From NCBI GenBank assembly GCA_003154195.1, contig PMCS01000030.1, forward strand, positions 59,446 to 123,445: 64,000 bases of DNA. The letters are read 5' to 3'. The DNA comes from Candidatus Omnitrophota bacterium. Lineage in GTDB: Bacteria > Omnitrophota > Gorgyraeia > Duberdicusellales > 4484-171. Every line of letters begins with the position of its first letter. Position 1 is the stretch's first letter. Positions 17,771 to 63,367 of the stretch are shown piece after piece. The position numbers were made by a program, and so were the translations under genes. A model generated the notes under the pieces. It had not been told where the DNA came from. It saw only the letters and a list, made by a program, of their open reading frames with translations, and searched no databases.

Positions 17771-17945
17771 CTTCGCCGAATACCCGTGGCTTGCCACGGG
17801 GATGAAGGCGTAAGAAGAACTGCTGCGAAGCCACGAGCGAAGCGAGGGCGAAGCAGAGTTATGCGCGTATTCGGCTTCGAAGAAATGAAGCTGGATACCC
17901 TGCGGCTTGCCGCAGGGAGAACTTTGGTGCTTCATTTTTTGCGCA
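17771..17945. repeat. Family-B repeat (copy 2): two CTTG-loop hairpins around a variable core
   Basis: cttcgccgaataCCCGTGGcttgCCACGGGgatgaagg ... gaagctggataCCCTGCGGcttgCCGCAGGGagaactttggtgcttcattt. The right ~60 bp are ~90% identical to 1161-1215. Confidence 0.6.
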
Positions 17946-31644: not shown

Positions 31645-32575
31645 TTCTTTCAAAATTTTCCCGGTAAATTTTGAAATAATTATTTTGCCCGATGAAATAT
31701 TTGAAAACGGGTGGCGGGATCAAAGAGTAAAAATTATACCTACGGGGAATGTTGCGCCGCCCGTTAAGCGGGACATCGGAGTAAGAGAGGCAAAGGGAGA
31801 GATAATTGCTTTTCTGGATGATGATACCTATCCGGCGCCGTGTTGGTTGGACGCCGCTTTAAAGTTGTTTGAAGGCAAAGATATCGCTTGCGTTTGCGGC
31901 CCGGCAGTCACGCCGGATGACGATTCCTTATTGCAGAAGGCAAGCGGCATCGTTTATGAGTCGTACCTGGTCAGCGGCGGCCATAATTTTCGCTATATTC
32001 CTAAGCCCGCCCGGTTTGTCGATGATTTTCCCAGTTGTAATTTTTTAATCCGGAGAGATATCTTTGAAAAAGTCGGCGGTTTTGACACGAAGTTTTGGCC
32101 GGGCGAAGATACTTTCCTTTGCCTTAAGGTTAAGCAAGCAGGAAAAAAAATGCTTTACCATCCCGCGGTTTTGGTCTATCACCATCGGCGCGGCCTTTTC
32201 GCCAAACATTTAAAACAGATCATCAACTACGGTTTACACCGGGGATATTTTGCCCGCAAATTTCCGGAAACTTCCCTGAGGATTACCTATTTTATCCCGT
32301 CGCTATTGCTTTTATGGTTGATTTCGGGTATTTTTTCCGGGCTTTCCGCGAAATTCGCGGCAATCTATTTTCTATCGGTATTATTTTATCTTGGCTGTGT
32401 GATGGCGGGGACGATTTTGGTTTTGGCGGGCAAAAAAGAAAAGATGGAAAATAAAATAAAATTGATTTTTTTAGTTTTTAGCGGAATAATCGCCACCCAT
32501 CTCGCTTATGGGATTTATTTTATCAAGGGGCTAATGGCTTCAAGCATGCCGGAGGAAACAGCAGATGATCGCTGA
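31580..32575 (+). CDS. GT2-family glycosyltransferase with C-terminal TM helices
   Basis: VSIIIAVKG...AFLDDDT (DxD) and hydrophobic C-terminal helices. The TGA stop lies inside the left TIR of the GxxExxY element remnant. Confidence 0.65.
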   Translation: MTVSIIIAVKGYCGNLKECVNNSFKIFPVNFEIIILPDEIFENGWRDQRVKIIPTGNVAPPVKRDIGVREAKGEIIAFLDDDTYPAPCWLDAALKLFEGKDIACVCGPAVTPDDDSLLQKASGIVYESYLVSGGHNFRYIPKPARFVDDFPSCNFLIRRDIFEKVGGFDTKFWPGEDTFLCLKVKQAGKKMLYHPAVLVYHHRRGLFAKHLKQIINYGLHRGYFARKFPETSLRITYFIPSLLLLWLISGIFSGLSAKFAAIYFLSVLFYLGCVMAGTILVLAGKKEKMENKIKLIFLVFSGIIATHLAYGIYFIKGLMASSMPEETADDR

Positions 32576-32790
32576 TTGGAAGATGCAGACGATCGCTGAG
32601 GATACGTATATTTATAGTGATTTAACCTATAGGTTTATTATTATGCCAAGGGCTCAAAATATAAATTGGTCTTATTAATTAATTTTGGTTCTCCTAAAGT
32701 TACCATAAAAAGATTAATATATACTAAAGGCGCAGGATGATATTTTATCTGTGATCATCTGCTTCTTCTAATCAGTGATCATCCGTGACT
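32561..32790 (+). mobile_element. Internally deleted (MITE-like) copy of the TIR-bounded GxxExxY element
   Basis: gcagatgatcgctga...tatagtgatttaacctata is the 5' ~70 bp of the element. It then jumps to ttatgccaagggctcaaaatataaattggtcttatt...tatctgtgatcatctgcttcttctaatcagtgatcatccgtgac, the 3' ~150 bp plus right TIR. Both parts are ~90% identical to 37678-38147. Confidence 0.7.
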
Positions 32791-34302: not shown

Positions 34303-34335
34303 ATTGCAGAGTACGAACTAAAGAATTGGAAGAAT

Positions 34336-34452
34336 GGTTAGGGTAAGGGTAAAGATGCCCGTATGGGCCAGGGTTAGGGTTAAGGCTGTGAATTCGTATC
34401 AGCCCTAACCGTTACCATAGCCCAAACCGGCTTCCTAACCCTAGCCTTAGCC
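34336..34452 (+). repeat. Telomere-like G-tract palindromic repeat (family A, copy 1)
   Basis: GGTTAGGGTAAGGGtaaagatgcccgtatGGGccaGGGTTAGGGTTAAGGctgtgaattcgtatcagCCCTAACCgttaccatagCCCaaaccggcttcCTAACCCTAgcc. The left arm is G-tract rich and the right arm is its C-rich partner. Confidence 0.7.
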
Positions 34453-35773: not shown

Positions 35774-35870
35774 AGGCTAGGCTCTCCTTCGCTCTTCGAG
35801 CTTCGGAGAAGTCTCGCCGAAGTTCTCCTTCGCTCTTCGAGCTTCGGAGAAATCTCGCCGAAGGCCTTGG
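35774..35870 (+). repeat. Tandem duplication of a 43-bp unit (family G) fused to family-A copy 2
   Basis: ctccttcgctcttcgagcttcggagaaRtctcgccgaag occurs twice, then gccttggcgaaggcggactttagcgaaggcggaaagccggtttggg. The reverse complement recurs at 38955-39050. Confidence 0.6.
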
Positions 35871-35930
35871 CGAAGGCGGACTTTAGCGAAGGCGGAAAGC
35901 CGGTTTGGGTTAAAAAACTTGGTTAGGGTA

Positions 35931-36085
35931 AGGGTAAAGATGCCCGTATGGGCCATGGTTATGGTTAAGGCTGTAAATTCGTATTAGCCCTAACCGTTAC
36001 CATAGCCCAAACCGGCTTCATAACCTTAACCCTAGCCGATTAACTACCGGCATCGTTGCCTTTACCCTAACCATGTCATAACCTT
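35931..36085 (+). repeat. Family-A repeat (copy 2)
   Basis: ggttagggtaagggtaaagatgcccgtatgggccatggttatggttaaggctgtaaattcgtattagccctaaccgttaccatagcccaaaccggcttcataaccttaaccctagcc, ~90% identical to copy 1, with an extra ctttaccctaacc arm. Confidence 0.7.
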
Positions 36086-36095
36086 AATAAATATT

Positions 36096-37034
36096 ATGTA
36101 TTTCTACGGACCGGTTCCTTCCCGCAGGCTCGGGTTTTCTTTAGGGGTCGATTTAATACCCAAAAAGGTATGTTCTTTCGATTGCGTCTATTGCCATGTC
36201 GCTCGGACTACCCAAAAAACCGCCGGACAATTTTCTTATGTTAAGTTACCGCAGTTTACGAAAGAACTTAAGGCGACCATAGCAAAGAAGCCCCAGCTTG
36301 ATTATATAACCATCTCCGGTTCCGGCGAGCCGACCTTGCACAAAAACCTCGATAAAATAATCGGCATCATCAAGCAAACAACCAAAAACAGATATCCGGT
36401 TTGCGTAATCACTAACTCTTCGCTTTTATACCGTAAGTCCGTGCGTCGAGCTTTGCGCCGCGCCGACTTGATTATTCCTTCGCTCGATGCCGCTACCCCG
36501 CGGGTTTTTGAAAAAATTAACCGGCCGCTTAAGGGGATAACCATCGATAAAATAATCAACGGCCTTATCCGGTTGAGAAAAGAATTCAAGGGTAAAATCT
36601 GGTTGGAAATAATGGTGGTGCGCGGCATTAACGATACACTTGACGAAGCGTTTCGGCTGCGAGAGGCTGTTGCTAAAATAAAACCCGATAAAGTCCAACT
36701 GAATATACCGGTGCGGCCGGCCTGGGCAGATATAGCCCTACCCGATAAAGAGCGCGTCCGGGAAATAGCGAAAATCATCGGCGGCAATATCGAAATTATC
36801 GCCCGATTTAACAAGAAACCGAGAAAGCAATCCGGCGGCGACGCCGCGAATGTAATCATCGAATTTTTGAAACGCCGTCCGGCAAACCTAAGCGATTTGG
36901 AAAAGACGCTGGGCATCAGCCGTCTTCGGTTGAACCGCTCTCTACGCGATCTAATATCGCGCGGGAAGATAAAAGAGAAAATGGCGCATGGCGAAAAATA
37001 TTTTATTTTTTGCGGCGCAAAAAATAAAATATGA
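36096..37034 (+). CDS. Radical SAM domain protein (small, non-B12)
   Basis: The N-terminal CSFDCVYCHV is a CX3CX2C motif 25 aa from the start. Confidence 0.65.
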   Translation: MYFYGPVPSRRLGFSLGVDLIPKKVCSFDCVYCHVARTTQKTAGQFSYVKLPQFTKELKATIAKKPQLDYITISGSGEPTLHKNLDKIIGIIKQTTKNRYPVCVITNSSLLYRKSVRRALRRADLIIPSLDAATPRVFEKINRPLKGITIDKIINGLIRLRKEFKGKIWLEIMVVRGINDTLDEAFRLREAVAKIKPDKVQLNIPVRPAWADIALPDKERVREIAKIIGGNIEIIARFNKKPRKQSGGDAANVIIEFLKRRPANLSDLEKTLGISRLRLNRSLRDLISRGKIKEKMAHGEKYFIFCGAKNKI

Positions 37035-37684
37035 TTAAAGAGAATATCGAAAAGATTTTGAAGGAATTGCCGCCGGGGGTGGAGCTGGCCGCGGCGGTCA
37101 AAGGGCGTAGTATTGCCGAAGTAAAAGAAGCGGCGGCGGCGGGGGTGACGATTTTGGCCGACAATTATCTCCAGGAAGCCGCCGAAAAAATCGAAGCTTT
37201 AGGAAGGGTTGCCCGGTGGCATTTTATCGGCCATTTACAAAAAAATAAAGTCCAAAAAGCGGCGGCGCTCTTCGATATGCTGGAGACTATTGATTCTTTT
37301 GAACTCGCTCAGGTTTTGGATAAAGAATGCGGCAGGCTGGGCAAGGTAATGCCGGTATTGCTTGAGGTAAACTCCGCGGACGAACCGCAGAAAGCGGGAT
37401 TAGAACCGGCCGAGGTGGAAAGTTTTGTCGGCCGGGCCGGCTCGTTGGCGCATCTGAAGATATCCGGGCTGATGACGATGGGGCCGCTGGTGGATAATCC
37501 GGAAGCGATTAGGCCGTTTTTCCGGAAAGTGAAGGAAATTTTTGATTTGATAAAGAGCAAAGCGTATGATAATTTAGATTGGAGATATTTATCGATGGGC
37601 ATGAGCGATACTTACAAGATCGCGATTGAAGAGGGGGCTAATATCGTTCGCATTGGAACAGCTATTTTCGGTATACGCAGATGA
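37031..37684 (+). CDS. yggS: YggS-family pyridoxal-phosphate homeostasis protein (PLPHP)
   Basis: LAAAVKGRSIAEVKEAAAAGVTILADNYLQEA...HFIGHLQKNKV. The stop codon lies within the left TIR of the downstream element. Confidence 0.85.
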   Translation: MIKENIEKILKELPPGVELAAAVKGRSIAEVKEAAAAGVTILADNYLQEAAEKIEALGRVARWHFIGHLQKNKVQKAAALFDMLETIDSFELAQVLDKECGRLGKVMPVLLEVNSADEPQKAGLEPAEVESFVGRAGSLAHLKISGLMTMGPLVDNPEAIRPFFRKVKEIFDLIKSKAYDNLDWRYLSMGMSDTYKIAIEEGANIVRIGTAIFGIRR

Positions 37685-38147
37685 TCACAGATGAGAAGAT
37701 GCAGATGATCGCTGATGATACGTATATTTATAGTGATTTAACCTATAAAATTATCGGGGCGGCTTACGATGTCCATAAGGAACTGGGTTCCGTCCATAAA
37801 GAAATTGTCTACCACAGAGCGTTGGCTATTGAATTCGGTAACAGGAACATCCCTTTTGTCGAAGAAAAGCCGATTGATGTAAAATTTAAAGAAAACAAAA
37901 TAGGAACATACAGGCCAGATTTTATTGTAGACGACAAAGTCGTGGTGGAGATAAAAGCCGTTCCTGCTATAGCCAAAGCAATGTATGATAAGGTTTATTA
38001 TTATGCCAAGGGCTCAAAATATAAATTGGTCTTATTGATTAATTTTGGTTCTCCTAAAGTTACTATAAAAAGATTAATATATACTAAGGATGCGGGATGA
38101 TATTTTATCTGCGATCATCAGCATCTTTTAATCAGCGATCATCTGCA
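37678..38147 (+). mobile_element. TIR-bounded mini-element carrying one GxxExxY-family (PD-(D/E)xK nuclease-like) gene
   Basis: Left end gcagatgatcacagatgagaagatgcagatgatcgctgatgatacg. Right end tatctgcgatcatcagcatcttttaatcagcgatcatctgcac. The reverse complement of the right end aligns to the left end, giving ~43-bp imperfect TIRs. The element sits exactly between the yggS stop and the MBL gene ATG. Confidence 0.65.
37681..38100 (+). CDS. GxxExxY-family protein (predicted PD-(D/E)xK nuclease fold)
   Basis: IIGAAYDVHKELGSVHKEIVYHRAL...PDFIVDDKVVVEIKAV. The E-x-K with preceding D matches PD-(D/E)xK. A homolog at 53759-54076 carries GCGFLEYVYQEAL. Confidence 0.7.
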   Translation: MITDEKMQMIADDTYIYSDLTYKIIGAAYDVHKELGSVHKEIVYHRALAIEFGNRNIPFVEEKPIDVKFKENKIGTYRPDFIVDDKVVVEIKAVPAIAKAMYDKVYYYAKGSKYKLVLLINFGSPKVTIKRLIYTKDAG

Positions 38148-38149
38148 CT

Positions 38150-38857
38150 ATGCGACTAAAAATTCTATTTGAAAAAGAAAAAATCGACGAAAGATTCTCC
38201 GGCGGATGGGGATTGTCTTATCTGGTGGGGGAGAATGTCCTTTTTGATACCGGCGAGAAGTTCGAATTTCTGGAAAACAACGCCCGGTTGATGAACGTTG
38301 ATTTAAACAAAATCAATAAAGTCGTGATTTCTCATACCCATTGGGACCATGTTTCTGGTTTGTGGGAGCTCTTAAAGCGTAACCGGGGGATTACGGTATA
38401 TGGCTGTCCGCGTTTCGAGGAAGATTTTAAGAATAAAGTGACCGCCGCTTGCAGCCGGTTTGTGGAAGTAAAAGAGATGGTGGAATTGGAAAAAGGGGTC
38501 TATGCTTCCGGCGAGATGATGGCTAATTATAAGGGTGAAGTAGTGGCGGAGCACGCTATGGCCCTCGATTCAGGGAACAATATCGCGATTCTTTGCGGTT
38601 GCTGTCATCCGGGAGTGCTGAACATGCTGCAGAAGATTACCGGTTTTTTCGGCCGGCATGTTGATATGCTCATCGGCGGTTTGCACCTGATGGATAAGGA
38701 GAAGAGATTTACCGAATATATTATCCAGGAAATGCCGGTTCGGGTCAAAAAAGCCGCGCCGGGGCATTGCACCGGCAGTGAAGCCGCCGCTCGCCTGAGA
38801 GCTATTTATAAGGAAAATTTCATCGAGCTGAAAGCGGGGATGGAGCTTGAGATATAA
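38150..38857 (+). CDS. MBL-fold metallo-hydrolase
   Basis: HTHWDHVSGL (HxHxDH zinc motif) and later H/D ligands. Confidence 0.6.
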   Translation: MRLKILFEKEKIDERFSGGWGLSYLVGENVLFDTGEKFEFLENNARLMNVDLNKINKVVISHTHWDHVSGLWELLKRNRGITVYGCPRFEEDFKNKVTAACSRFVEVKEMVELEKGVYASGEMMANYKGEVVAEHAMALDSGNNIAILCGCCHPGVLNMLQKITGFFGRHVDMLIGGLHLMDKEKRFTEYIIQEMPVRVKKAAPGHCTGSEAAARLRAIYKENFIELKAGMELEI

Positions 38858-39060
38858 AATCGGTTAAGGCTAGGGTAAAGAAGCCGGTTTGGGCTATGGC
38901 AATGGTTAGGGCTGATACGAATTTACAGCCGTTACCTTAACCTTGCCCCATACCGGCATTCCGCCTCCGCTAAAGTCCGCCTTCGCCAAGGCCTTCGGCG
39001 AGACTTCTCCGAAGCTCTAAGGGCGAAGGAGAGCGTAATCTTCGCCATAGCCGTTTTTAA
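38858..39060 (-). repeat. Family-A (copy 3) plus family-G composite repeat, inverted orientation
   Basis: The reverse complement of 38858-38950 aligns to 35960-36037. The reverse complement of 38955-39050 aligns to 35780-35900. Confidence 0.65.
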
Positions 39061-40010: not shown

Positions 40011-40193
40011 TGGGCAGATGCGGAGAGCCATATTGTGTATTTTTATACAGCCGAAAAGCAAACGGAGTTTACGCGGGCTTGCGCGTAAAACTTTATATAG
40101 GTATAAATATATTAACTTAACAACAATAATGTTTTTCTAATGGCAATTTATTTTCGCGGGAACCGCGAAGATAAATCAGGAGGGTTCAAACCC

Positions 40194-43100
40194 ATGCTTA
40201 ACCTACTTAACCACAAAAAAGTCAACGGTTTAACTAAAGTCTTAATTTCTACCCTGGCGTTTTTATTTTTCTTTTCCAGCCTGGGTATCTCGCGTGCCTT
40301 GCCGCAAGCTGGGCCCGGCGCCATTATGGCGAGCCTGCCGGTTCCGGGGCAGATGGTAAATATTACCCCGCCGTTCACTCCGGTGTTGATTAAAGGCCTT
40401 AAGCTCGACGTCAATGACCCGTTTAAATTCAACTTTATTGTCGAGCCGGGCGACAGCCGATTGAAAGACGCTCAATTAAAAGAAGAAATCTCCGATTTAG
40501 TGCGCTACTTCTTAACCGCCTTAACCGTTCCCGAATCTGACCTTTGGGTCAACCTTTCGCCGTTTGAGAACAGCCGTGTTATCACCGATGAATTGTCGTC
40601 GACCGATTTAGGCCGCGATTTGTTGGCTTCCGATTACATTCTCAAGCAATTAGTTTCTTCCCTGACCTATCCGGAATCGCCTTTAGGCAAAAAATTCTGG
40701 GATAAAGTATACAAGCGCGCCGGCGAATTATACGGCACCACCAAAATCCCGGTCAATACGTTTAATAAAATCTGGATTATGCCCGAATCGGCTTCGATTT
40801 ACGAGAACGGCAACCAGGTGATTATCTCCGATATTAAACTCAAAGTGATGCTGGAAGCGGATTATCTGGCGATGAAGAATACCAAGGGGCAGGGGGCAGG
40901 AGTCAAGGGCCAAAGCGAAAATACAAAAAAGGATATCAATGATTTAAGCGGGCAGATCATGAAGGAAGTGATCCTGCCGGTCATCGAGCAGGAAGTCAAC
41001 CAGGGAAAGAATTTTGCCAAAGTGCGTCAGATCACCTATTCGATTATCCTGGCCAGCTGGTTTAAACTGAAACTCAAAGACAGCCTGGTGGCTAAAGCCT
41101 ATGCCAATAAAAAGACGATGAAGGGCGTCGATACCAGCGACCCGGCGTTACGCGAACGCATTTATCAGCAATATGTCTCCGCCTATAAAAAGGGCGTCTA
41201 TGACTATATCAAAAAAGAATTCGAAGGTAATTCTTCGCGCCAGGTAAGGCGCAGGTATTATTCCGGCGGGTATACCATCAGTAATGCTGTAGAGTTGGTC
41301 AGCGGCGGGGTGGAGGTCACCACCCCCCAGTTTGCTCAAGCCGCGGCTCGTAAAGAAACAGTAATCGCCACGGCTTTAGTAAACGAGGGGGGCGTCACCG
41401 CTTCGCCGGTTGGAATCATGTCGTCCCCGTTGGCTAGAGTCACTGAACTAAAAGGTAAGATAATTCCTTCTCTTGAAAGGGATCTTGCGGCAAAAATGGC
41501 TGTGCATCGAAAACAACAGGCGAATATCAAGGACGAACATCAGCGACAGGTGGGCATATATGCGAGAACTTGGGCTACGCAGGCACTTCTCAAATATGAC
41601 ACTGAAATCAGTAAGAGAGCCAACTACGATGGTGACAGGGTAGCCGCCGCTTGGGCAGATCTACAACAGGCTAAAGCTGCGTGGAATGTAGAAAAAGAAC
41701 TTGATCAACGTCGTTTGGAACTAGCGAGCCTAGAACTAGAAATAAGAATAAAAAAAAGAGGGTCTTCGGCGGTAGCCGCTTCGCCGGTAACACCTGTGGA
41801 GGATGGATTTACCTCGGCAATAGCCGGTTTTTACGCTATGGCGGGCCAAGCTAAACCTGATTGGCGAACGATGCGAGCTGAAGTTGAAGGAAAATATAAT
41901 ACGCTCAAGGCAGAATTAGATAGAGCCCACGAGGAAGCCGACAGACAATATAAGGAAAGGATGACTCAGAACAATGAATTACTTCAAGCATGGTCTGACT
42001 TGGAAGAGGCTGTAGGAAAAGTAGCGAAAGAATTAAGGCAAGTAGAAACAGAAATGGCAAATGTTGCTGGCCAGGAAGGTAGTCAAGATAAAGTATCTGC
42101 TTTGCGACAGCGATTAGATGAAATAAAGGCAAGATATTCATCGATTCTTGCTAAAAAAGACGAAGCTGATGCCCGTATGGTAGCAGATTTCAATGAAAGA
42201 GTGAACCCCTTAAGACTTTCCTTGGAGACTATCGAAATCAAACTCCTTGCTGCTGAATTAGAGTTTAGGATGGTTATGGCGGGATATCCTAACGTTGGAA
42301 TTATGAATGGTATTATCCAGGAATATGAGACAGGAGCAAGAACGCATTCGACTTTGGCAGACTATAGAGAGATGATTGGTCACGAATCGATTACTGAAGA
42401 GATGCTTAAACCTTTGGCGGAAGCGATAGAAAGAGCCAAGGCACGCGTTGCTGATCTTAAGGCTAAAGAAGGTAAGGCTTCGGATGCGGCTCAAGAAGCG
42501 CCGACCGCGCCGACCGCGCCGGCCGCGCCGGCCGCGCCGACCCACGAAGCTGAGTCAACGGCCAGAGCTTTAGAGACCCCGGAGGTAACGCCAACGCAAG
42601 TCACTATGCAGTCGACGGAAATGTTGGCTGCAGCGGTTAATGATTTGGCAGACCAACATCGGGTGCGCTCTGAAGCAATGGTAAGGGCGCAGGCAAAACG
42701 TGAGACGCTGAAAACAGAGCTTGAGGCGGCGAGGCAGGCGGCCGATTCAGCTCTCGGCCAATCAGACTATGATACGCTTCGAGAAGCCTGGGCGCAAAAA
42801 AGCAGAGAATGGGATGAATTTATCACGCAGACATTTAACCCTCAAGTTGATCCATATAATGCCGGTTTAGCCCGGTTGCAAGCGGCCAGGATAGCGGCTG
42901 ATGTGGTGGCGTATAGAGGCGAAGGCCGGAGCATCGGGGATACTGATGTTAAGATGTGGCAGGCCCTGGGCGATAAGATTAGGGCGACAATTGAGTACTT
43001 AGAAGATACGGGAGAACGGTTCGCGGAGCCGCACAATAATGCCCCGACGGTTGAGCAGCTCAAGAATCTTGACGCGGAATTGGCATTAGCTAAAAGTCAT

Positions 43101-46100
43101 CTTAGCGTGGCGTACTATGCGCAAGGGTTAACGGAAACGCCGGCTTTTTTAAACGAGCTTTCCCAGGCCAGCGCGGAAAATCAAGATAGAGCGATTAAAG
43201 AAATTGTTAAGATTGCCCAAGGTAAAGGAAAAGTCTTGGCGGAAATAATCAGGCTCATTAATAGAACATCCGGTCTGCCGGAAAACCTTCGGCCGGTTAC
43301 CACTAAGCTTCTTGCCGCGATACATAAAGAACCGGGTTCGACGAAGGATTTGCTCGGGCGTCCCAGGGCGCCTAAGATCCGGGCCGCCGTGATTGATGCG
43401 CTCGATAAAATTCCCGGAAGCGACAGTGATGCAGCGCTTGAGCTTATTGGGGTTGGGCCTGGGGGTGAAGCCGTGCCTGGGGGTGAAGCCGCGATGGATG
43501 TTTTAGCGACACGAAAACAGTTAGGGGGTAGAATCGGCAGTGGAGAGCCGGAAAGAGGGGATAGCGGTATGCGGAGACTTTTAGAAGAATTCCCCCCTGA
43601 TCCGGATAAGCCGACACCATCAGACTCGGCTAAGGACGCAGCGGCCAAGCTTGCCGCCGCGGCTAAAGCTGGTGACGCCAGTGCGGCGACAGCCGCGGTG
43701 CTGGATGCATCCATGGGAGTGGACCGCGTAGCTCAAGCCAGCAAGACCGGAACCGACTCGGAGCGTATTACCGCTCTTGATCTTCTTTTTTCGATTGCTA
43801 CTACCGGCCAGGGGTCGCGCCGCGCCCGCTGGGCGATTACTGATGCCGCGGTTAACGCCGATAGTTCAGCTGCCGTGCGGATTGCCGCGCTTAAATATCT
43901 TGGCGCGCTCAACAATCACGCCGCGCTTCCGGCGCTTAACCATGTAATTAACGATATCGCTGGTAGGTCTCAGGCGGATAGGGATAAAGCCGGCCTTGCT
44001 GCGGTCAGCGAGGCGGCGCGCCAGGCTATCAAAGATATCAATGAAACCAATGCCAAGCCCAATGCGCTTGTCAGATTAACCAACGCTTTTAAGGCAATTT
44101 ACTATAGGTTGATAACCAATAGCGCCCAAAGCGCGCCTGCGGGTGCATCTACGACTACGTCAACTGCCAAGGGCGGTGGTAATGTCGTCGGCGGGGGAAA
44201 TGACGATGCTGCCGCTAAAGCTCTTGCTCAAGCAAAAGAAGCCGCGGCTCAAGCCCTTACTGAAGCAAAGGCAAAAGTCGAACCCGTTACTGCTGATTTG
44301 AGAGATAAACAACATCAAGCCGAAATCGAAGCTACAATTGCGGCACGTACGCAAAGAGAGTTTGTGGAATTGGGTAAACAACGGGCCGCCAAAGAAAAAG
44401 AATTGGCCGATGCCCAGGCGGCAAAAACTGCCGCCGACCAGGCTGTTGCCACTCTTGAGGCGCCGCCGGTTAAAGTGCCGGGGAAAAGAGCGCCCTCGGC
44501 TGCTAAGAGGAAAAAAGACCTTGCCCAAGCCAGGAAAAATGCCGGGTACGCCACGGCTGAAGTCGAGAATCGTACGCGGGGATTGAATGATTTGGTATCG
44601 CTTGCGGTGAATCCGGCTGAAGCCAGGGCTGCAGCGGCTAAGACTGCGGCTGATGAGGCCGCGAAGCTTGCGGCAGAGGCCGAAACACAGGCAAAAGCGG
44701 CGCAAACCGCAGTTGACGAGGCGCAAGCTAAGGTGGAGCAATTGAATGCGCCGCCTAGCCAGTCCACCGGAACGGCGGCCGGCAATAAGCCGAATTTAGC
44801 TGTCGACGCCGCCAAGAAATTAGCCGATATCCCGCCGGATGAGCCTGTGTCGGTAGAGGAGAGTTTAGCTGAAGCCGCCGCCCGGATATTGGGCCACGGC
44901 GCTTCCGAAATAATCAATAGTGATCCGGAGGTAGCTGCCGTCCGGCTTTTAGATATTTTAAAAGACCCTGATCAATCTGCCGACCGCATCTCTGTTTTGA
45001 GATTGCTGGGGGAGATAGCCATGACTGAAATAATTGCTAAATATCGGCCGCAAGAAGCTGTGCCTGCGTCGGAAGGAGGGCCGGCCGTGTCGTCCGCGGT
45101 AAAAGTGATGAACGTCGAGTTGTCTTCTCATGTTGGGGCTATTTTGAATGCTATACTTGCTACTTTTAGGCAGGAAGGGGATGCCGGTATCCGTATCGCC
45201 GCGCTTGAGCAATTAGTCGAGTTAGGTTTATCTTTCCCCCCTGAAAGTGGGGGACGGGTTCCGATAATAAATGCAATCCAGTCAGTTGCCAAGAGCGGGA
45301 AAGGAGAAGATAAAGCAGTAATAAAAGCCGCTAAACAGGCTTTGATCGATATGGGGGTTCGTAGCAAATTGGGAAGGATAGGGCTACTTGCGGGGTTGGC
45401 GGTGGCGGTGGCTTTTGGCGGCTACGCGTTGCAACATGCCATGCAGGCTCCCGTCCCCGGCCTTGTTCCGGGCGTCGGCCATCTACCCGGAGGCCCCGAC
45501 GGAGGCCTCGATGTCGGACATCACGGCGCAAATCTGCCCCAGTTGATTATGCCTTCCCAAATGCCCCCGGATGATTATAAGTGGAGCCTGGAGCAGAACA
45601 GCGCGGGAAAATTGTTTTGGGTTGCCGTACCCGATTATTCTAAGCATCCCGATATTATGACCAGAGACCAAATTAATACACTTTATAATCCTCCGCCCGG
45701 TTTTTATCGGGACGGGAGTGATGCAGGCAGGTTGAATGCTTGGCTGGTGCCGATGTTTCCTATACCGGTACAGTCTACAGCGCCGGCCGGAACCGATACC
45801 GGTGTTCAAACTGCTACCGGCGTCATGGCCATCGATGCCGCAGTCCAGAAAGTCGCCGTTTCCGCGGCTCGTGAGGCGTTAGCCAATAGAGATACCGGCA
45901 AATCCGCGCTGGATTCCCAAGCGGTAACGCCCGACGCCGGAAAAAGCGACAAAACTGCCGTCGATGGCGGTACTACAGTAGATGTTCCCGGAGCGTATAC
46001 TACTACTCCGGTGGAAAAGGAAAAGATTCCCGCGACATCCCCTCCGGCTGATAATGGGAGCAATCCGACCGGAACAGGAGCAGCAGCAACCACAGGCGAT

Positions 46101-47315
46101 GCGGGAAAGACTGTGACTCAAGCTCCCGCGGCAACAGGCAACGCGAATGTTAAAAAACAAGCAGGAAAAAACGACGATAAAGTAATGAAAAAACTCCACG
46201 ATGAAGAAATGGCCAAACGAGCGAATGCGAAATTACTTTTGGAAACGGCCATCCATGACTATCTGTTGGATCATGGAATGCCCACGGATGATGGAGCAAT
46301 CCAGAAAATAAGGGCAGACAATAAGCTTGAGGGCGATCACAAAATCCCATTTCACAATCCGTACTATATTCGTATTAATGGAACATCAGTTAAGGTACCC
46401 GGAGCAGATTCATTACCTCTATCTCTGGCCACGAAAGCCCCGGCGGCGAAAGCTGCGAGACTTAGTTTTGACCAAGCGATAGAGGGGGATTTGGCTTCCC
46501 CCTCCGGCCCCACCCATGTTGATCGCGGCGTTCGTAAGGCTACTGAAAAGGTTAAAAATGATATAGCCAGCATCAATGGCTACAAGCGGACTCCTGACGG
46601 CCTTTTGACAGATGATGGTAAGCCGGTTCCGCCGGGGAAAAAGCTATTAATGGTACCGCCTTCACTGGGTGACCCTTATTATGAGTCAGCGCTTAAGGAT
46701 TTCCAGGCAAAGGCATACGCTTATCTGCAGCAACATCCTGACGCTTCGATGGACGAAGCGATAGATTATGTCGACCGTACCACCCCGCCTTATCAGGAGA
46801 CTAAGTGGGCATACGCTGGTTCAGAACAGGGGGGTAAAGAAGGACGTAGAGTTCCGCTTGGTAAGCCGGTAACTTTTAGGGATTTAGTAGAGCACAATGG
46901 TATTGTTTGGGATGGCCCGTCGGATAACAACGCCCCCTCCGGTACCGCGACTGGTGATAGCGGTACTCCCGGGGTTGGGCACGGTAACACGCCGGGTGAT
47001 GCGACCGGCATTGGTGGGGGAGTAAAGGCGAAGGTACTAGATTTTCTTCACGAGGCGGGGTTCGGCCGCCAGCTTCCGACAACGCAACAGGTTTTTACTG
47101 GACTTAAGGGAATGAGCAGCAGTTCGCCGGACACTAAAGGCGGTATCGATATGAACACCGCCAAGACGGCGATGAATATCAAAGGCGACGGGAAATTCGC
47201 TTTTGCTTCCTCGGCGCTTAAGGCCGACGGCCAGTCTTGGAAGGGGATTACGTTTACCATCGTGAAGGTAGAAAGGATCACTAACCCCGCGTTATTTTTC
47301 GCCGCGTCGCGATAG
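40194..47315 (+). CDS. Giant secreted/membrane protein 1 (2373 aa). It has a signal peptide, a conserved ~330-aa N-terminal domain of unknown function, coiled-coil and HEAT/PBS-lyase-like repeat regions, one internal TM helix, a Thr/Pro/Gly-rich region and a conserved ~55-aa C-terminal module.
   Basis: AGGAGG RBS 9 nt before the ATG at 40194. Signal peptide KVLISTLAFLFFFSSLGIS. The N-domain is ~80% identical to that of the 47582 gene. HEAT-like repeats include VRIAALKYLGALNNHAALPALNHV and IRIAALEQLVELG. The TM helix is RIGLLAGLAVAVAFGGYAL. The C-terminal module is IDMNTAKTAMNIKGDGKFAFASSALKADGQSWKGITFTIVKVERITNPALFFAASR. Confidence 0.8.
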   Translation: MLNLLNHKKVNGLTKVLISTLAFLFFFSSLGISRALPQAGPGAIMASLPVPGQMVNITPPFTPVLIKGLKLDVNDPFKFNFIVEPGDSRLKDAQLKEEISDLVRYFLTALTVPESDLWVNLSPFENSRVITDELSSTDLGRDLLASDYILKQLVSSLTYPESPLGKKFWDKVYKRAGELYGTTKIPVNTFNKIWIMPESASIYENGNQVIISDIKLKVMLEADYLAMKNTKGQGAGVKGQSENTKKDINDLSGQIMKEVILPVIEQEVNQGKNFAKVRQITYSIILASWFKLKLKDSLVAKAYANKKTMKGVDTSDPALRERIYQQYVSAYKKGVYDYIKKEFEGNSSRQVRRRYYSGGYTISNAVELVSGGVEVTTPQFAQAAARKETVIATALVNEGGVTASPVGIMSSPLARVTELKGKIIPSLERDLAAKMAVHRKQQANIKDEHQRQVGIYARTWATQALLKYDTEISKRANYDGDRVAAAWADLQQAKAAWNVEKELDQRRLELASLELEIRIKKRGSSAVAASPVTPVEDGFTSAIAGFYAMAGQAKPDWRTMRAEVEGKYNTLKAELDRAHEEADRQYKERMTQNNELLQAWSDLEEAVGKVAKELRQVETEMANVAGQEGSQDKVSALRQRLDEIKARYSSILAKKDEADARMVADFNERVNPLRLSLETIEIKLLAAELEFRMVMAGYPNVGIMNGIIQEYETGARTHSTLADYREMIGHESITEEMLKPLAEAIERAKARVADLKAKEGKASDAAQEAPTAPTAPAAPAAPTHEAESTARALETPEVTPTQVTMQSTEMLAAAVNDLADQHRVRSEAMVRAQAKRETLKTELEAARQAADSALGQSDYDTLREAWAQKSREWDEFITQTFNPQVDPYNAGLARLQAARIAADVVAYRGEGRSIGDTDVKMWQALGDKIRATIEYLEDTGERFAEPHNNAPTVEQLKNLDAELALAKSHLSVAYYAQGLTETPAFLNELSQASAENQDRAIKEIVKIAQGKGKVLAEIIRLINRTSGLPENLRPVTTKLLAAIHKEPGSTKDLLGRPRAPKIRAAVIDALDKIPGSDSDAALELIGVGPGGEAVPGGEAAMDVLATRKQLGGRIGSGEPERGDSGMRRLLEEFPPDPDKPTPSDSAKDAAAKLAAAAKAGDASAATAAVLDASMGVDRVAQASKTGTDSERITALDLLFSIATTGQGSRRARWAITDAAVNADSSAAVRIAALKYLGALNNHAALPALNHVINDIAGRSQADRDKAGLAAVSEAARQAIKDINETNAKPNALVRLTNAFKAIYYRLITNSAQSAPAGASTTTSTAKGGGNVVGGGNDDAAAKALAQAKEAAAQALTEAKAKVEPVTADLRDKQHQAEIEATIAARTQREFVELGKQRAAKEKELADAQAAKTAADQAVATLEAPPVKVPGKRAPSAAKRKKDLAQARKNAGYATAEVENRTRGLNDLVSLAVNPAEARAAAAKTAADEAAKLAAEAETQAKAAQTAVDEAQAKVEQLNAPPSQSTGTAAGNKPNLAVDAAKKLADIPPDEPVSVEESLAEAAARILGHGASEIINSDPEVAAVRLLDILKDPDQSADRISVLRLLGEIAMTEIIAKYRPQEAVPASEGGPAVSSAVKVMNVELSSHVGAILNAILATFRQEGDAGIRIAALEQLVELGLSFPPESGGRVPIINAIQSVAKSGKGEDKAVIKAAKQALIDMGVRSKLGRIGLLAGLAVAVAFGGYALQHAMQAPVPGLVPGVGHLPGGPDGGLDVGHHGANLPQLIMPSQMPPDDYKWSLEQNSAGKLFWVAVPDYSKHPDIMTRDQINTLYNPPPGFYRDGSDAGRLNAWLVPMFPIPVQSTAPAGTDTGVQTATGVMAIDAAVQKVAVSAAREALANRDTGKSALDSQAVTPDAGKSDKTAVDGGTTVDVPGAYTTTPVEKEKIPATSPPADNGSNPTGTGAAATTGDAGKTVTQAPAATGNANVKKQAGKNDDKVMKKLHDEEMAKRANAKLLLETAIHDYLLDHGMPTDDGAIQKIRADNKLEGDHKIPFHNPYYIRINGTSVKVPGADSLPLSLATKAPAAKAARLSFDQAIEGDLASPSGPTHVDRGVRKATEKVKNDIASINGYKRTPDGLLTDDGKPVPPGKKLLMVPPSLGDPYYESALKDFQAKAYAYLQQHPDASMDEAIDYVDRTTPPYQETKWAYAGSEQGGKEGRRVPLGKPVTFRDLVEHNGIVWDGPSDNNAPSGTATGDSGTPGVGHGNTPGDATGIGGGVKAKVLDFLHEAGFGRQLPTTQQVFTGLKGMSSSSPDTKGGIDMNTAKTAMNIKGDGKFAFASSALKADGQSWKGITFTIVKVERITNPALFFAASR
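42498..42542 (+). repeat. In-frame 9-bp tandem repeat (x5) encoding APTAPTAPAAPAAPT within giant gene 1
   Basis: gcgccgacc gcgccgacc gcgccggcc gcgccggcc gcgccgacc. Confidence 0.8.
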
Positions 47316-47581: not shown

Positions 47582-50500
47582 ATGCTTACTTTTAATCCAA
47601 AAAAATCAAATGCCGGTAAAGTTTTTTCGTCTTTTATGGCGTTTGTTTTTTTCTTTACCAGCTTAGGCACGGGTAAGGCCTTTTCGGATAACGGGCAATT
47701 AAGCCTTGCGTCTCTGCCTTTACCGGGCCAGATGGTCAATCTCACTCCGGTGTTTACTCCCGCCCTGCTCAAAGGCCTGAAACTTGACGCGAACAATCCG
47801 TTAAGATTCAATTTCATCGTCGAACCGGGCGATACGAAATTCGGCGAAGCGAAACTAAAAGAAGAAGTCTCCGATATGGTCCGCTATTTCCTGGCCGCGC
47901 TGACCATACCCGAATCTGACCTCTGGGTAAACCTTTCTCCGTTCGAAGGCGGCAGGGTAATCACCGATGAATTGTCGTCAACCGATCTGGGCCGCGACAT
48001 GCTGGCTTCCGATTATTTATTGAAACAATTAGTCTCTTCCCTGACCTATCCCGAATCAGCCTTAGGCAAAAAATTCTGGGAAAAAGTGTACAGAAGAGCC
48101 AATGAAGTTTATGGGACGGCTAAGATACCGGTCAACACTTTTAACAAAATATGGATTATGCCGGAGTCGGCATCGATTTTTGAGAACGGGGATAAAGTGG
48201 TAATCTCCGATATCAAACTGAAGGTGATGCTGGAAGCTGATTATTTTGCTATGCAAAATAATCAGGCCAAAGACCAAAAAACTGGAAAACCGAAAAACGA
48301 AAAAACTTTTACCACGGGTAATCAATCTGACGGTAAAGCGGTTAATGATTTATCCGGGCAGATCATGAAAGAAATCATCCTGCCGGTCATCGAGCAGGAA
48401 GTAAACCACGGCCAGAGTTTTGCCAAATTGCGCCAGATCATCTACTCCGTCATTCTGGCCGGTTGGTTTAAATTAAAATTAAAAGACAGTATTGTCAACC
48501 AGACTTACAGCGATAAAAAGAAGATGAAGGGCGTAGATACTTCTGACCCGGCGTTAAAAGAAAAGATATATCAACAATACGTGCAGGCTTATAAGAAAGG
48601 CGTCTATGATTATATCAAGAAAGAATTCGAGGCTAATTCCCATAGACAAGTCCGGCGCCGTTATTTCTCCGGCGGCGTAGAGCTTCTCTACGGGAAGCTT
48701 GTCGGTGATACCCAGCGAGTTCCCCCTGAAGCGTTTGCCGGAAAATTAAGCAGTCCGCTCGAAGCCGAGGCGGCCACGGTTGAGTTAGCGCCGGCTTCGC
48801 TGCCTAATAGTTTCCTGGGCGAGGTGCCTCCGGGCTATGTCAGCCCATGGGTTGACCGGAAAGGTAAAGATGGCCCAATCGATCAGCATTTGCCTACATT
48901 GGCTCAATACGATAATGTCCTAATCGCTATAACGACGGGGCCTGAGGCCGTAGAGGAGATTGTCACGAGAGAAGGCCCGCTTGCGGCGCCCAATTTTGTC
49001 AGGGCGCTCGAGGATAATGCTATGGGAGAATTTAGGAAAGAAATTATTAACGTTCTTGGTAGAATAGGAGATGCGAGCGCAATTGGCAATATCGTCAGGT
49101 TCGGCATTGATTACATTGGTAGAAAAACCCCGGCTGGAGAAGTGCGCGCAGTGCATTTAGCCGCAATCGAGGCGATTAAGAATATAGGTATGCGCTATAT
49201 TTGGAATATTGATCATGCTTTTTGGATGCTTAGCCTTGCGGTGGAGGGAATAGGGGACGCGGAGCTTCACGCAAAAGCGATTGACGCTCTCAGGGAAATG
49301 GCGGCCTTGATGGTTAAGACTAACCCGATAGATGATGAAAAAGCCGTATACGCTTCCAGGCTCGCTTATTACAGGCAATTTTTCCAGAGGCTTCTGAGCA
49401 TGGCTAGGACTAAACCTAATAAAAGAGGTGTAGTCGATTATGGAGTTGTAGACAAGGATGTCCGTATCGTCGCTATTTCTGCTCTCGCGCCTGTAACTGC
49501 AGCCGCTAAAGATAATAGATTTGTTTCTGATCCCGAATATGATGGCTTTCTTTCGGGTGTTCGTTCGGAACTTACGGGTGTGGCTACTGATGAAAAAGAC
49601 AATCCGGAGGTGCGCGCCGCCGCAGTTCGTGCTCTTGGGGTGATGGCTGCTAATAAGCGGTTCCCGATCATGATTTATCATACACTTGAAGATATGTTTA
49701 CAAGAGACAGTCCGGATATGCCGGATATTGTTAGGGCTGCTCTTCGCGAGGTTCTTCCGGCGGTAAGCAAAGACGCCGGTACTGTCGCGGCTTCTCCGGT
49801 TACCGCCCTGAAGCCCGCGGCCGCGGATGAGGCCAGGCCGGGAGAGACAGGGCGAAAGCGGGGAGATGTTTTAAGAGCACTTAGGGCTTCTGAAAGAGAC
49901 CTGGCAACTTTAGAAGCCGCCTTAGAAGCTAAAAGTTGGGCATATCAATTATATACGGCGGGCTTTGATGAAGCCGCCGCAGGAGAGTTAACCGACGCTG
50001 TCAGGGTTAAGAAGCTTCCGCTTACAGGCAGGTATCGGCCCACTGATGATGGGGTCATGTTGATTGTTCATGCCGAGATTGGGGCGATTTCACGCACCGA
50101 AACGGAGCGTCTTGGTAGTTTAGAAAGACAAAGAGAAATCAGGGAGCTTGATGATAAGGTTAAAGCTAAAAGAGCGCAGGTTATTGAGCTCGGATGGGCG
50201 GCGCGTGAGCTTGAGGCAGCTCAGCAGGAGCGCCATGCTGTCGCCCTGAGAAGATTAGAAGAATTAAAGGCTAAATTTCAAAAGGCGGTGTCTGGTTTTA
50301 CAAGCGCTTTAGAAGAAGCTCAAGGGAATGGCCCAGAGGCTGTTGCTGCCGCCAGGGGTGATCTTGATAAGTTGTTGGGAGAAATCCAACTCGCCGGCGA
50401 CGCGATTACGCAAGCGTTGGCTCGTTATAGAGAAGAGGGGATCGATCTTGGCGATGAGGCTCTGGTTGCCGGGACGCGTACTATCGGGGGAAAACCGGCA

Positions 50501-53559: not shown

Positions 53560-53758
53560 AATAAAACTAAAAAATAAAACAATTTTTAACCACGAGATTT
53601 AATTCAATAAAAACTTACACTGTATTCGAATAAAAAAAATTTTCAACCACAAGATTGCACTGATTACACTGAAAAATACAAATTCCGATAATGTAAAATA
53701 ATTACAAAATTAATCTGGAAATCAGTGAAATCTGTGTAATCATGTGGTTACAGTTTTA
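53560..53758. promoter_or_regulatory. AT-rich upstream region of the minus-strand radical-SAM gene, with direct and inverted AACCACRAGATT repeats
   Basis: tttttAACCACGAGATTtaa (53584), ttttcAACCACAAGATTgca (53645), and the inverted copy atcATGTGGTTa (53740). Confidence 0.35.
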
Positions 53759-54076
53759 CTATAAGATTCTTCTTTTTATTTCTAAACTTTCGGTACCAAA
53801 ATTCAGCAATAGCCCTACTTTATTTTTAGTAGCTTTCAAATAATTTATCAACTGCGCTTGGTCGTTATTGGTTAAACCGGAGGCGGCCTTTATCTCTACG
53901 ATTACGCAATCTTCAACAAAAAAGTCAGAGCTGTATTTTTTTGGTATAAGTAAGTCTTTATACCATATATCCAATTCTTTCTGCGGTATAAAAGGTATCT
54001 TGCGTAGTTTAAACTCGTAAGATAAAGCTTCCTGGTAAACGTATTCCAGAAAACCGCACCCTAAAATTTTATGCAC
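53759..54076 (-). pseudogene. N-terminally truncated GxxExxY-family gene (second copy; degenerate, possibly inactive)
   Basis: GCGFLEYVYQEALSYEF matches the GxxExxY motif. The upstream in-frame sequence still encodes SDITEKAIGAAIEVH, homologous to the N-terminus of the 37681 protein, but it has no start codon and is closed by a stop. Confidence 0.5.
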
Positions 54077-54249
54077 TTCGATAGCGGCTCCGATAGCCTT
54101 TTCGGTTATATCGCTATACAGCCACTTTTTGCTTTAGATGATTCCGTTGGTTTCATATTATGATATAATAAGACATAATAACATAAACTCCGGTTGCTGT
54201 AATGTTATTTGTTTTTAATTCCATTTTCTCATTTGTTTTCTGAGGTTTT

Positions 54250-60394: not shown

Positions 60395-60408
60395 GGAGAA
60401 AAGCGTTA

Positions 60409-60529
60409 ATCGGTTAAGGCTATGGTTAGGAAGCCGGTTTGGGTTACGGTAATGGTTAGGGGCTAATACGAGTTTACAGCCTTAACCCTGACCATGGCCC
60501 ATACGGGCATCATTACCCTCGCCCTAACC
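60409..60529 (-). repeat. Family-A repeat (copy 4, inverted orientation)
   Basis: cggttaaggctatggttaggaagccggtttgggttacggtaatggttaggggctaatacgagtttacagccttaaccctgaccatggcccatacgggcatcattaccctcgccctaacc. Confidence 0.65.
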
Positions 60530-62048: not shown

Positions 62049-62753
62049 ATGAAAAGTAATCTTTTGAACTCCGAACATATTAAGAGTCTTTATTGGGAAA
62101 AAGATTATAATGTTTCTGAAATTGCCCGTAAGGTAGGTATTTCTGCGCGCGCTTTGCACGATTTCATGAATAGGAACAACATACCAAGGCGTTTACCTTC
62201 AGAAGCTGGATATATTGCTAATAAAAATAAACCTCAATTTAGAATCGTAGGTAATCTCGATAATTTTAAACAACAATTAAAAACAGCCGGTCTTATGTTA
62301 TATTGGGCCGAAGGGACATTCAGCGGTAATACTGTTGATTTTGCCAATAGCAATTCTTCCATGATTAAAATATTTCTAAGATTTTTAAGAGAAATTTGTG
62401 GCGTTAAAGAGGAGAGACTGCGAGTTTATCTTTACGCGTATTCATATCAAAATATAGATAATTTAAAGTTATATTGGCATAAGGCAACAGGTATTTCTTT
62501 GAAACAATTTACTAAGCCTTATGTGCGTAGAGGTAATGCTAATTTAAGCAAAAGAAAACTTCTTTATGGGCTCGTTCATATCAGATATAATGATAAACGG
62601 TTATTAAAAATTATTGAAAAGTGGCTCTTTGAATATAGTAATTCGTGGACAGGTACCCAAGTGGTCAACGGGGACAGACTGTGGTTAACGCAGCATTCTG
62701 TTGAAAGGCAGAATGAAAAAGCGGGTGAATTCAGGGAAGCCCTTCTGGGGTAA
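62049..62753 (+). CDS. HTH-containing protein with a degenerate single LAGLIDADG-like motif (putative homing-endonuclease-like). Its 3' end overlaps the tRNA-Tyr 5' exon and the first 70 nt of the intron.
   Basis: N-terminal HTH (VSEIARKVGISARALHDF). TAGLMLYWAEGTFSGNTVDF resembles LAGLIDADG blocks with Glu in place of Asp. The last 35 codons are the translation of the tRNA exon and intron P1-P2. Confidence 0.35.
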   Translation: MKSNLLNSEHIKSLYWEKDYNVSEIARKVGISARALHDFMNRNNIPRRLPSEAGYIANKNKPQFRIVGNLDNFKQQLKTAGLMLYWAEGTFSGNTVDFANSNSSMIKIFLRFLREICGVKEERLRVYLYAYSYQNIDNLKLYWHKATGISLKQFTKPYVRRGNANLSKRKLLYGLVHIRYNDKRLLKIIEKWLFEYSNSWTGTQVVNGDRLWLTQHSVERQNEKAGEFREALLG

Positions 62754-62960: not shown

Positions 62961-63077
62961 CTGTTTTCATAATTCCACTGGTGTGGGGATATTGAGTCAG
63001 GCTATCGTGAGGCAAGGCCTAATACATTTTCGGAACAAACAGCCGCTTCGCGGCGCTTTGACTTCGTCAAAGGTTTG

Positions 63078-63182: not shown

Positions 63183-63256
63183 GCGGGCGTAGTTCAATGG
63201 TAGAACACTAGCCTTCCAAGCTGGATACGTCGGTTCGATCCCGATCGCCCGCTCCA
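63183..63256 (+). tRNA. tRNA-Gly (anticodon TCC), 3' CCA encoded
   Basis: Acceptor GCGGGCG/CGCCCGC, D arm GTTCAATGGTAGAAC, anticodon arm CTAGC-CTTCCAA-GCTGG, T loop TTCGATC. Confidence 0.85.
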
Positions 63257-63352: not shown

Positions 63353-63367
63353 TGTGCTTAATTTAAT

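Follow-up and report, generated by a model that had tools for sequence, protein, structure and literature searches.

We analysed a window of 64,000 nucleotides from a Candidatus Omnitrophota bacterium (assembly GCA_003154195.1, contig PMCS01000030.1, positions 59,446 to 123,445 of the forward strand; positions below count from the first letter of the window). At 37677-38149, between yggS and a gene for a metallo-beta-lactamase (MBL)-fold hydrolase, the window contains a pair of inverted-repeat arms around an intact gene for a GxxExxY protein with PD-(D/E)xK nuclease motifs (Table 1). The arms (37677-37716 and 38107-38146) are 40 nt long and 85% complementary, and each has two half-sites spaced 24 nt apart. 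A first-pass annotation of the window, made from the letters alone, had described a unit bounded by terminal inverted repeats (TIRs) with a single GxxExxY nuclease gene, and we verified the arms, the open reading frame (ORF), and its hidden Markov model (HMM) matches. The genes named beside this unit and its two smaller relatives in the window (yggS, the MBL-fold hydrolase, a family 2 glycosyltransferase (GT2), a B12-binding radical SAM protein, and gpsA) were also identified correctly.

Table 1. Coordinates of the element, its relatives and its host genes. Positions are those of the window, except in the last row, where they belong to the loci named.
Feature	Position	Strand	Remarks
Host gene yggS, upstream	37031-37684	+	Last 2 codons and stop come from the left arm
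Left arm, full element	37677-37719	+	Half-sites 37677-37692 and 37701-37716; GCAGATGATCRCWGAT; 24 nt spacing
GxxExxY / PDDEXK_3 nuclease gene	37681-38100	+	139 aa; HMM matches, invariant residues
Right arm, full element	38107-38149	+	Half-sites 38107-38122 and 38131-38146, then terminal ACT; adjoins MBL ATG at 38150
Host gene, MBL-fold hydrolase, downstream	38150-38857	+	Starts 2 nt past the yggS stop in the empty-site relative L134
Left arm, deleted copy	32561-32603	+	Supplies the TADDR-stop end of the GT2 gene; stop 32573-32575
Nuclease-gene remnants, deleted copy	32604-32746	+	5' end (28 nt) fused to 3' end (113 nt); ~243 nt gone; ~96% identity to full copy
Right arm, deleted copy	32747-32790	+	Adjoins ATG of B12-binding radical SAM gene at 32791
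Solo right-type arm	63316-63355	+	2 half-sites; possible third, degenerate one from ~63289
Second, distant GxxExxY paralogue	53759-54133	-	GxxExxY motif and D/E/K residues present
Gene-less hairpin, related arm family (AACCACATGATTACACAGATTTCACTGA)	53645-53749		28-nt arms, 86% complementary; directly 3' of second paralogue
In-frame insertions	L122 4779-6998; L129 4770-6995; L131 825-3380; proteins P0182-P0217		Host Pfam domains split

The left arm contains both the yggS stop codon (TGA, 37682-37684) and the ATG of the nuclease gene (37681), which overlap as ATGA. Only one of its three frames is open, and this frame encodes the first 13 residues of the nuclease (MITDEKMQMIADD); the remaining two contain TGA codons. 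At the other end, the half-sites of the right arm stop 3 nt upstream of the MBL-fold hydrolase ATG. An exact look-up of the protein found a single locus (yggS-GxxExxY-MBL), in fen and peat metagenomes, and no polymorphism.

The 139 amino acid protein matches TIGR04256 (GxxExxY; E 1.3e-33, 115.8 bits against a cut-off of 35) and PF13366 (PDDEXK_3; E 7e-33, 113.9 bits against a cut-off of 22), in both cases over residues 19-133. It contains the stretches GSVHKEIVY, RPDF, and VEIK, and E41, Y44, D80, E90, and K92 are invariant in an alignment of 30 homologues, D80, E90, and K92 being the predicted catalytic residues. An AlphaFold2 model (pLDDT 81) has the PD-(D/E)xK fold, with a restriction-endonuclease-like alpha/beta core, and the arm-encoded N-terminus is disordered in it. 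The best Foldseek matches in the PDB are all PD-(D/E)xK proteins (LHK-Exo, RecE, 3ijm, Cas4 SSO0001, Hjc, and EndA), all of them weak (E at least 2.6e-3); among solved structures, lambda-exonuclease/RecE, Cas4, Hjc, and a tRNA-splicing endonuclease come nearest, none of them a close relative. We predict from these motifs and the fold that the protein is a nuclease. Its gene is the only ORF in the unit, Pfam and NCBIfam gave no match besides GxxExxY / PDDEXK_3, and neither database recognised a transposase (DDE, HUH, serine, or tyrosine) in the full-length copy. Readings of the nuclease as a defence-system or phage gene were not supported, as PADLOC and PHROGs gave no meaningful match. A scan of viral contigs found no relatives.

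At a tolerance of up to 3 mismatches, the window has 12 matches to the 16-mer half-site ATCAGCGATCATCTGC where 0.34 would be expected by chance, an enrichment of ~35-fold, and none of 100 shuffled sequences reached 12. Ten of the 12 matches fall in three places, namely the full unit, a 230-bp copy, and a solo arm. The 230-bp copy (32561-32790) aligns to the full one over 78 nt at 88% and 153 nt at 93% identity, which verifies its earlier description as an internally deleted derivative resembling a miniature inverted-repeat transposable element (MITE). It lies between the GT2 and radical SAM genes; the GT2 stop falls within its first half-site, and the arm gives GT2 its last 5 codons as well as this stop. 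The two copies are ~90% identical overall and occupy different junctions, and the closest homologues in other genomes are ~76% identical; the window genome is itself absent from the GTDB representatives, of which L024 alone aligns to it, at 69% nucleotide identity. Divergence between the two window copies is ~16% in the arms and ~4% in the gene remnants, so either the arms change faster or the interior alone was copied.

The solo arm lies between a tRNA-Gly gene (63183-63256) and gpsA (ATG at 63368) and ends ~12 nt upstream of the latter. It had been noticed before, with a distance from gpsA (16 nt) that we correct here. What had been called a degenerate, truncated copy of the element at 53759-54076 proved to be a different GxxExxY paralogue, whose whole domain can be read on the minus strand as far as 54133, with no ATG, GTG, or TTG ahead of the domain and no pair of flanking arms at 53759-54133. 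Its identity to the 139 amino acid protein is ~42%, an estimate from the two translations and not a computed value.

Related genomes provide the two occupied junctions in an empty state. The window lineage is thinly sampled, and the comparison comprises two syntenic relatives, the Omnitrophota contigs L134 and L137. L134 has the gene order radical SAM-yggS-MBL and an empty junction ...GAATAGttATGAGG, spelled ...GGGCCAAGGGAATAG tt ATGAGG (yggS-TAG-tt-ATG-MBL); YggS has equal length in both genomes, ending in FGPRE-stop in L134 and FGIRR-stop in the window. L137, an Omnitrophota metagenome-assembled genome (MAG) with a radical SAM protein 73% identical to that of the window, has the order GT2-GT2-radical SAM with an overlapping TAATG junction (...GAGGAGTAATGAAA), and its GT2 protein ends in MPEEE-stop as opposed to MPEE-TADDR-stop in the window. 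The empty junctions read GAATAGTTATGAGG (yggS/MBL) and GAGGAGTAATGAAA (GT2/radical SAM). The arms therefore supply the last codons and the stop of the upstream gene, as had been proposed for the stops of both yggS and GT2 and is now verified from coordinates and empty sites. Both window copies occupy junctions that are otherwise -1 or 2 nt wide, add 0-5 residues to the upstream protein, and leave the downstream ATG intact, in agreement with the claim of insertion exactly at stop/start junctions. This exact placement is at least partly explained by selection in a compact genome, rather than being proven targeting. MBL homologues at L135 and L136 lack synteny and are uninformative for the empty site. 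In L138 (1600-3004) and L139 (1582-3004) the GT2/radical SAM junction is taken up by AbiEii and its upstream partner (AbiEi). Selfish modules seem to land at this junction repeatedly.

A scan of 1.84 billion representative proteins returned 8,354 relatives of the nuclease at E <= 0.001, and the GxxExxY (PF13366) family comprises at least 8,354 clusters at 50% identity. PF13366 is given as "function unknown" (PMC3424549). The accessible literature contains no functional description of GxxExxY, PDDEXK_3, PF13366, or TIGR04256, nor of the arms or of in-frame nuclease insertions, Candidate Phyla Radiation bacteria included; the earlier remark that GxxExxY proteins are not described as transposases agrees with what is searchable. 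The 120 closest homologues (64-76% identity) are found in Omnitrophota, Nitrospirota, Endomicrobiales, and metagenome bins. Nearly all start with M-[ITS]-[TA]-D, which are arm-encoded peptides (MITD/MIADEKTQMITD), and many have 1-3 EKTQMI(A/T)D units, which are translated left-arm half-sites. There are also many representatives of ~250-275 amino acids with two tandem GxxExxY domains (P0200, P0209, P0218, P0223, and others).

To survey the arms we used 80 metagenome loci with relatives 45-73% identical, which include 61 distinct loci with both flanks usable. Flanking inverted arms with z >= 5 against shuffles are present at 42 of these 61, with the building blocks CACAGATGATCACAGAT or variants particular to lineages, among them CACAGATGAGCACAGAT, CACGGATTAGCACGGAT, and GCAGAATGACGCTGAT. 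Four contigs encode a second, distant paralogue; three of the second paralogues have another heptamer (CACGGA or ACGAAT, not CACAGA), and the fourth (L097) has a variant of the CACAGAT motif. It is therefore the protein, and not the host genome, that the arm sequence tracks. The gene is under strong purifying selection, with a median dN/dS of 0.09 over 75 pairs. Because arms and protein co-vary, the gene is under purifying selection, and the unit contains no other gene, we propose that the nuclease acts on its own heptamer arrays. The arms might instead be ordinary intergenic palindromes that stand beside an unrelated small gene by chance, given that gene-less palindromic repeats of other kinds also occur at junctions in the window genome. 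With the half-site so over-represented in the window, a gene-arm association that recurs in more than 100 homologues of several phyla, and arms that co-vary with the paralogue, we consider the probability of such a coincidence negligible.

Movement of the unit can be recognised in closely related copies. The L066 and L082 genes are 96.6% identical (dS 0.12) and lie between unrelated host genes, and their homology runs from CACAGATGATC to AATCTGTGCA, that is, from arm tip to arm tip. Flanks are likewise unrelated for L064/L070 (95%), L109/L113 (85%), and L098/L110 (83%). Gene-bearing units are oriented with their hosts: the upstream neighbour is co-directional in 44/44 units with a visible neighbour and the downstream one in 30/32. 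From the host stop to the first nuclease ATG the distance is -58 to +91 nt in 46/46, with an ATGA overlap in 8. Promoter- and terminator-like motifs are not enriched within the unit or near it. We also considered the absence of a Shine-Dalgarno sequence before the downstream genes as a special feature and rejected it, as most genes in the window lack one.

A strict arm pattern with 21 specified bases, run on 185,579 species-representative genomes, identified 43 loci, nearly all in Candidatus Omnitrophota MAGs. These arms are intergenic and close to gene ends, and most are solo arms or gene-less back-to-back hairpins. A looser half-site pattern, applied to all fetched loci, gave 46 clusters with a left arm followed by a right arm (L-then-R) and 0 in the R-then-L order. 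The lengths of the hairpins peak at 84 and 92-95 nt; hairpins of ~95 nt and solo arms are far commoner than gene-bearing units. The hairpins conserve the asymmetry between L and R (outer half-sites GATGATC and GATTAGC, respectively) and lie in both orientations relative to adjoining genes. Hairpins at L013, L026, and L034 have the same L and R arm types as the gene-bearing unit L035 of the same MAG. The first-pass annotation had named as the opposite of its own view a picture in which such palindromes occur at hundreds of gene junctions with no link to GxxExxY genes; gene-less arms are indeed present at many junctions (the 46 hairpins plus solo arms in the sampled loci), whereas the association of the gene with arms is near total. 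Its structural reading is supported well beyond the window. The full element at L035 sits between tandem copies of small Flp-pilin-like genes, and one gene of this kind takes its ATG and first residues from a left-arm-like sequence (CAGATTAGCGCAGATGAGAAGATACAGATGGGCACAGAT) at 1250-1300 of the locus.

Some relatives are part of housekeeping proteins. At three LepA loci and one RecG locus the GxxExxY domain is in frame within the GTPase or helicase domain. Among the best 150 of the 8,354 relatives, 53 are at least 280 amino acids long; we inspected 20 of these, and 19 are host proteins split by the domain (the host of the other one is not identifiable). Hosts include LepA and other EF-Tu-type GTPases, RecG, GatB, RtcB, leucyl-tRNA synthetase (LeuRS), asparagine synthase (AsnB), GT2, and an O-antigen ligase (Wzy). 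Pfam shows host domains and PDDEXK_3 alone in 23 in-frame proteins, with no Hint / protein-splicing (intein) domain, so these copies would remain in the mature protein. The insertion sites in LepA and RecG recur over many clusters. In-frame copies keep arm peptides on either side (TQTNAD-type before the domain and RQSA(S/L)-type after it), and in the LepA copies the right arm is absent at the DNA level. The retained arms imply that arms travel with the gene to places without a prior intergenic palindrome.

This last point bears on an alternative in which the hairpins come first. The ~95-nt palindromes would be primary and spread by other means, and the gene would encode a free-standing homing endonuclease that cuts empty hairpins at their centre, after which repair from a gene-bearing copy, through arm homology, would bring the gene in. 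Homing endonucleases of the PD-(D/E)xK type are known (I-Ssp6803I is one). The gene is always enclosed by an L and an R arm, hairpins without a gene greatly outnumber gene-bearing units, and target duplication is absent. The greater divergence of the arms than of the interior in the window copies is as expected if the interior alone were converted, and the L066/L082 left arms are ~80% identical (counted by eye) against 96.6% for the gene. We nevertheless regard this explanation as unlikely, though not to be dismissed. Both arms accompany the in-frame copies in LepA, RecG, GatB, RtcB, and others, at places where no prior hairpin is expected, gene-bearing units are uniformly co-directional though hairpins lie both ways, and the diverged arms are also explicable by faster neutral change or by exchange among arm copies, the L066/L082 genes having a dS of 0.12.

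The arms could also function in RNA, pairing in the operon transcript so that the unit is looped out above a 40-bp stem. Either RNase III or the nuclease itself could cut this stem, as happens in an rRNA intervening sequence, or the stem could bring the stop beside the start and so keep translational coupling; the repeats in the DNA would then matter for this RNA structure alone. In predicted RNA folds the arms pair strongly (full copy, z = -5.4; deleted copy, z = -7.3), the left arm contains the host stop and the right arm has the next start at its foot, and the fold search also returned tRNA-splicing endonucleases, weakly. This seems very improbable to us, since mismatches compatible with G:U pairing are equally frequent in sense and antisense (71 vs 67 in gene-bearing units and 45 vs 49 in hairpins), a mismatch between the outer half-sites is conserved (GATGATC vs GATTAGC), hairpins occur in both orientations, solo arms are common, and Rfam has no match at the arms. 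For these reasons we treat the arms as ends at the DNA level; the LepA copies without a right arm in their DNA also argue against a role in RNA. It is speculation that the stem has a further effect in the mRNA, holding the host stop near the next start.

A further alternative is a domesticated partnership like that of REPIN-RAYT systems, in which RAYT genes are flanked by their own repeats. The hairpins would be useful to the host (in mRNA stability, operon punctuation, or chromosome organisation), and the nuclease, inherited vertically, would act as their caretaker and maintain or slowly duplicate them. The long retention of an intact gene at a junction between radical SAM and hemE genes fits this, as do the strong purifying selection, the confinement of hairpins to intergenic junctions, and a gene that, as with RAYT genes, is flanked by its own repeats. 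We think it rather improbable: several divergent paralogues with their own arms can occur on one contig, the in-frame invasion of housekeeping genes looks parasitic, hairpins have no orientation preference relative to transcription, arm mismatches have no strand asymmetry, and the window contains decayed copies.

Comparison with known systems places the element near three of them, the REPIN-RAYT systems, bacterial MITEs, and homing endonuclease genes, and it fails a defining feature of each. With REPIN-RAYT it shares short palindromic doublets dispersed between genes, one enzyme gene with inverted copies of the matching repeat on its two sides, co-variation of repeat and enzyme, long vertical persistence, and the lack of target duplication. 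The enzyme is, however, a PD-(D/E)xK GxxExxY protein and not a HUH/Y1 (IS200/IS605-type) transposase, and the arms are heptamer arrays and not GC-rich repetitive extragenic palindromic (REP) hairpins. The gene starts inside an arm and lacks expression signals of its own, several paralogues per contig are possible, and there are in-frame insertions in host genes.

The bacterial MITEs that are co-transcribed with adjoining genes (Correia/NEMIS of Neisseria, ERIC/IRU, RUP, and BOX) are likewise elements of ~100-150 bp with terminal inverted repeats, found at gene junctions in both orientations. Such MITEs arise by internal deletion of a longer coding element, of which the 230-bp window copy is an intermediate. 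The TIRs delimit the unit, and relocated copies are homologous as far as the arm tips and no further. Occupied sites number three in the window and dozens in Omnitrophota MAGs, and L134 and L137 provide empty ones. The full-length copy differs in that it is ~470 bp long without a DDE or other known transposase, and no target-site duplication was found.

With homing endonuclease genes and inteins (including I-Ssp6803I) the element has in common that the nuclease is the only gene, that there is no target duplication, that it persists by doing minimal harm, and that it lies between genes or in frame at fixed loops of LepA, RecG, GatB, and RtcB. In contrast to these it is bounded by arms, leaves hairpin derivatives, occupies many unrelated junctions and not one cognate site, and has neither a surrounding intron ribozyme nor a Hint/intein domain. 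The intervening sequences of 23S rRNA, which are excised by RNase III, also have an inverted-repeat stem around a small ORF of a large paralogous family inside a host transcript. Unlike them, the element is found in mRNA operons and not in rRNA, has no strand-specific wobble signature, and occurs as solo arms and as copies in both orientations.

We conclude, with a probability of roughly 60%, that the unit at 37677-38149 is a copy of a family of nuclease-driven selfish elements that are bounded by arms, have the GxxExxY PD-(D/E)xK gene as their only gene, and use the transcription and translation of the host. The family is apparently widespread and undescribed. Several observations weigh against this conclusion. 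To our knowledge, a PD-(D/E)xK nuclease cannot by itself carry out strand transfer. Direct repeats of 2-8 nt flanking 35 elements, scored at 6 offsets, were not above the shuffled control, and we found no target motif at insertion sites; inspected manually, the flanks merely extend the inverted repeat by a few nt (TTG-CACAG...CTGTG-CAA). Only 2 of the 43 strict-pattern loci have a GxxExxY gene, so most arm copies are gene-less, and the other gene-less palindromic junction repeats in the window genome mean that an unrelated enzyme could move the hairpins. Finally, the radical SAM/SPASM-hemE junction is occupied by the element across lineages that are 80-93% identical; this common junction indicates long vertical residence and might mean a benefit to the host.

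If the unit is such a selfish element, its parts suggest how it may live. Repeated heptamers (CACAGAT-N3-CACAGAT, every 24 nt) bound a single nuclease gene that has no detectable promoter or ribosome-binding site and, lying co-directionally behind a host gene, would be transcribed with the operon. With its ATG in the left arm, at or beside the host stop, the nuclease is probably translated by coupling or re-initiation. Two frames of the left arm close fast with TGA, ending the host gene within 0-5 extra codons, and the third starts the nuclease; the right arm ends at the start codon of the next gene. These stop and start features would account for survival in junctions 0-2 nt wide and as in-frame insertions. 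The nuclease may recognise its own heptamer arrays and make a DNA break that leads to copying of the arm-bounded unit, or of its interior, to new sites. As there is no target duplication, repair-mediated (homing-like) or hairpin-end chemistry would be likelier than DDE-type transposition. Loss of the gene would leave the 230-bp derivative, the ~95-nt hairpins, and the solo arms, which may still be moved in trans. The element would persist by doing near-zero damage: it ends the upstream gene, uses the same ribosome traffic, and ends at the next start, or it stays open in frame.

The window also contains other repeats and features. A second family of long palindromic junction repeats has four gene-less copies (34332-34452, 35917-36037, 38858-38978, and 60408-60520) with arms GGTTAGGGTAAGGG...GCCCGTATGGGC...GGTTAGGG that pair with ...CCCTAACC...; the copies begin right after gene stops, one of them 1 nt past the MBL stop. 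There is a 65-nt intergenic repeat with an internal GC hairpin at 1148-1212 and 17873-17937 (copies 94% identical) and an intergenic 41-nt tandem repeat at 35783-35863. A complete group I intron (62593-62906, plus strand; Rfam, 86.8 bits) seems to split a class II (Leu-like) tRNA gene between tRNA-Thr and tRNA-Gly, with the 3' half of the tRNA at ~62921-62963; an ORF at 62049-62753 overlaps the intron and has no Pfam match. Two adjoining giant ORFs (40140-47315 and 47582-52084; 2391 and 1500 amino acids) have several segments in common that are 75-88% identical, with no Pfam match on record in the corresponding metagenome contigs L001 and L002.

The element is best seen as a selfish nuclease-bearing mobile element, with a real chance that it belongs to a new class. 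In the broader form of this proposal, which we offer tentatively and hold to be possible rather than probable, GxxExxY (PF13366) proteins are the mobilising enzymes of an unrecognised class of prokaryotic mobile elements: nuclease-only, bounded by heptamer arms, without a transposase or target duplication, wholly reliant on the transcription and translation of the host, found either where a stop meets a start codon or inside essential proteins as in-frame inserts that are not spliced out, and making their own MITE-like hairpins. If true, a selfish gene would fit operon junctions of 0-2 nt by bringing its own stop and start codons, and homing-type nucleases would have a third route, beside introns and inteins, to hide in genes. 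With the in-frame versions in LepA, RecG, GatB, RtcB, and LeuRS, core proteins would be seen to tolerate nuclease insertions of a new kind; in annotation, such host genes look fused or over-long. Arm-nuclease pairs with differing heptamers could serve as naturally occurring modules for sequence-specific DNA recognition. A class of intergenic palindromes that abound in uncultured phyla, Omnitrophota and Nitrospirota among them, would be explained, and a very large domain family without a known function would gain its first biological role.

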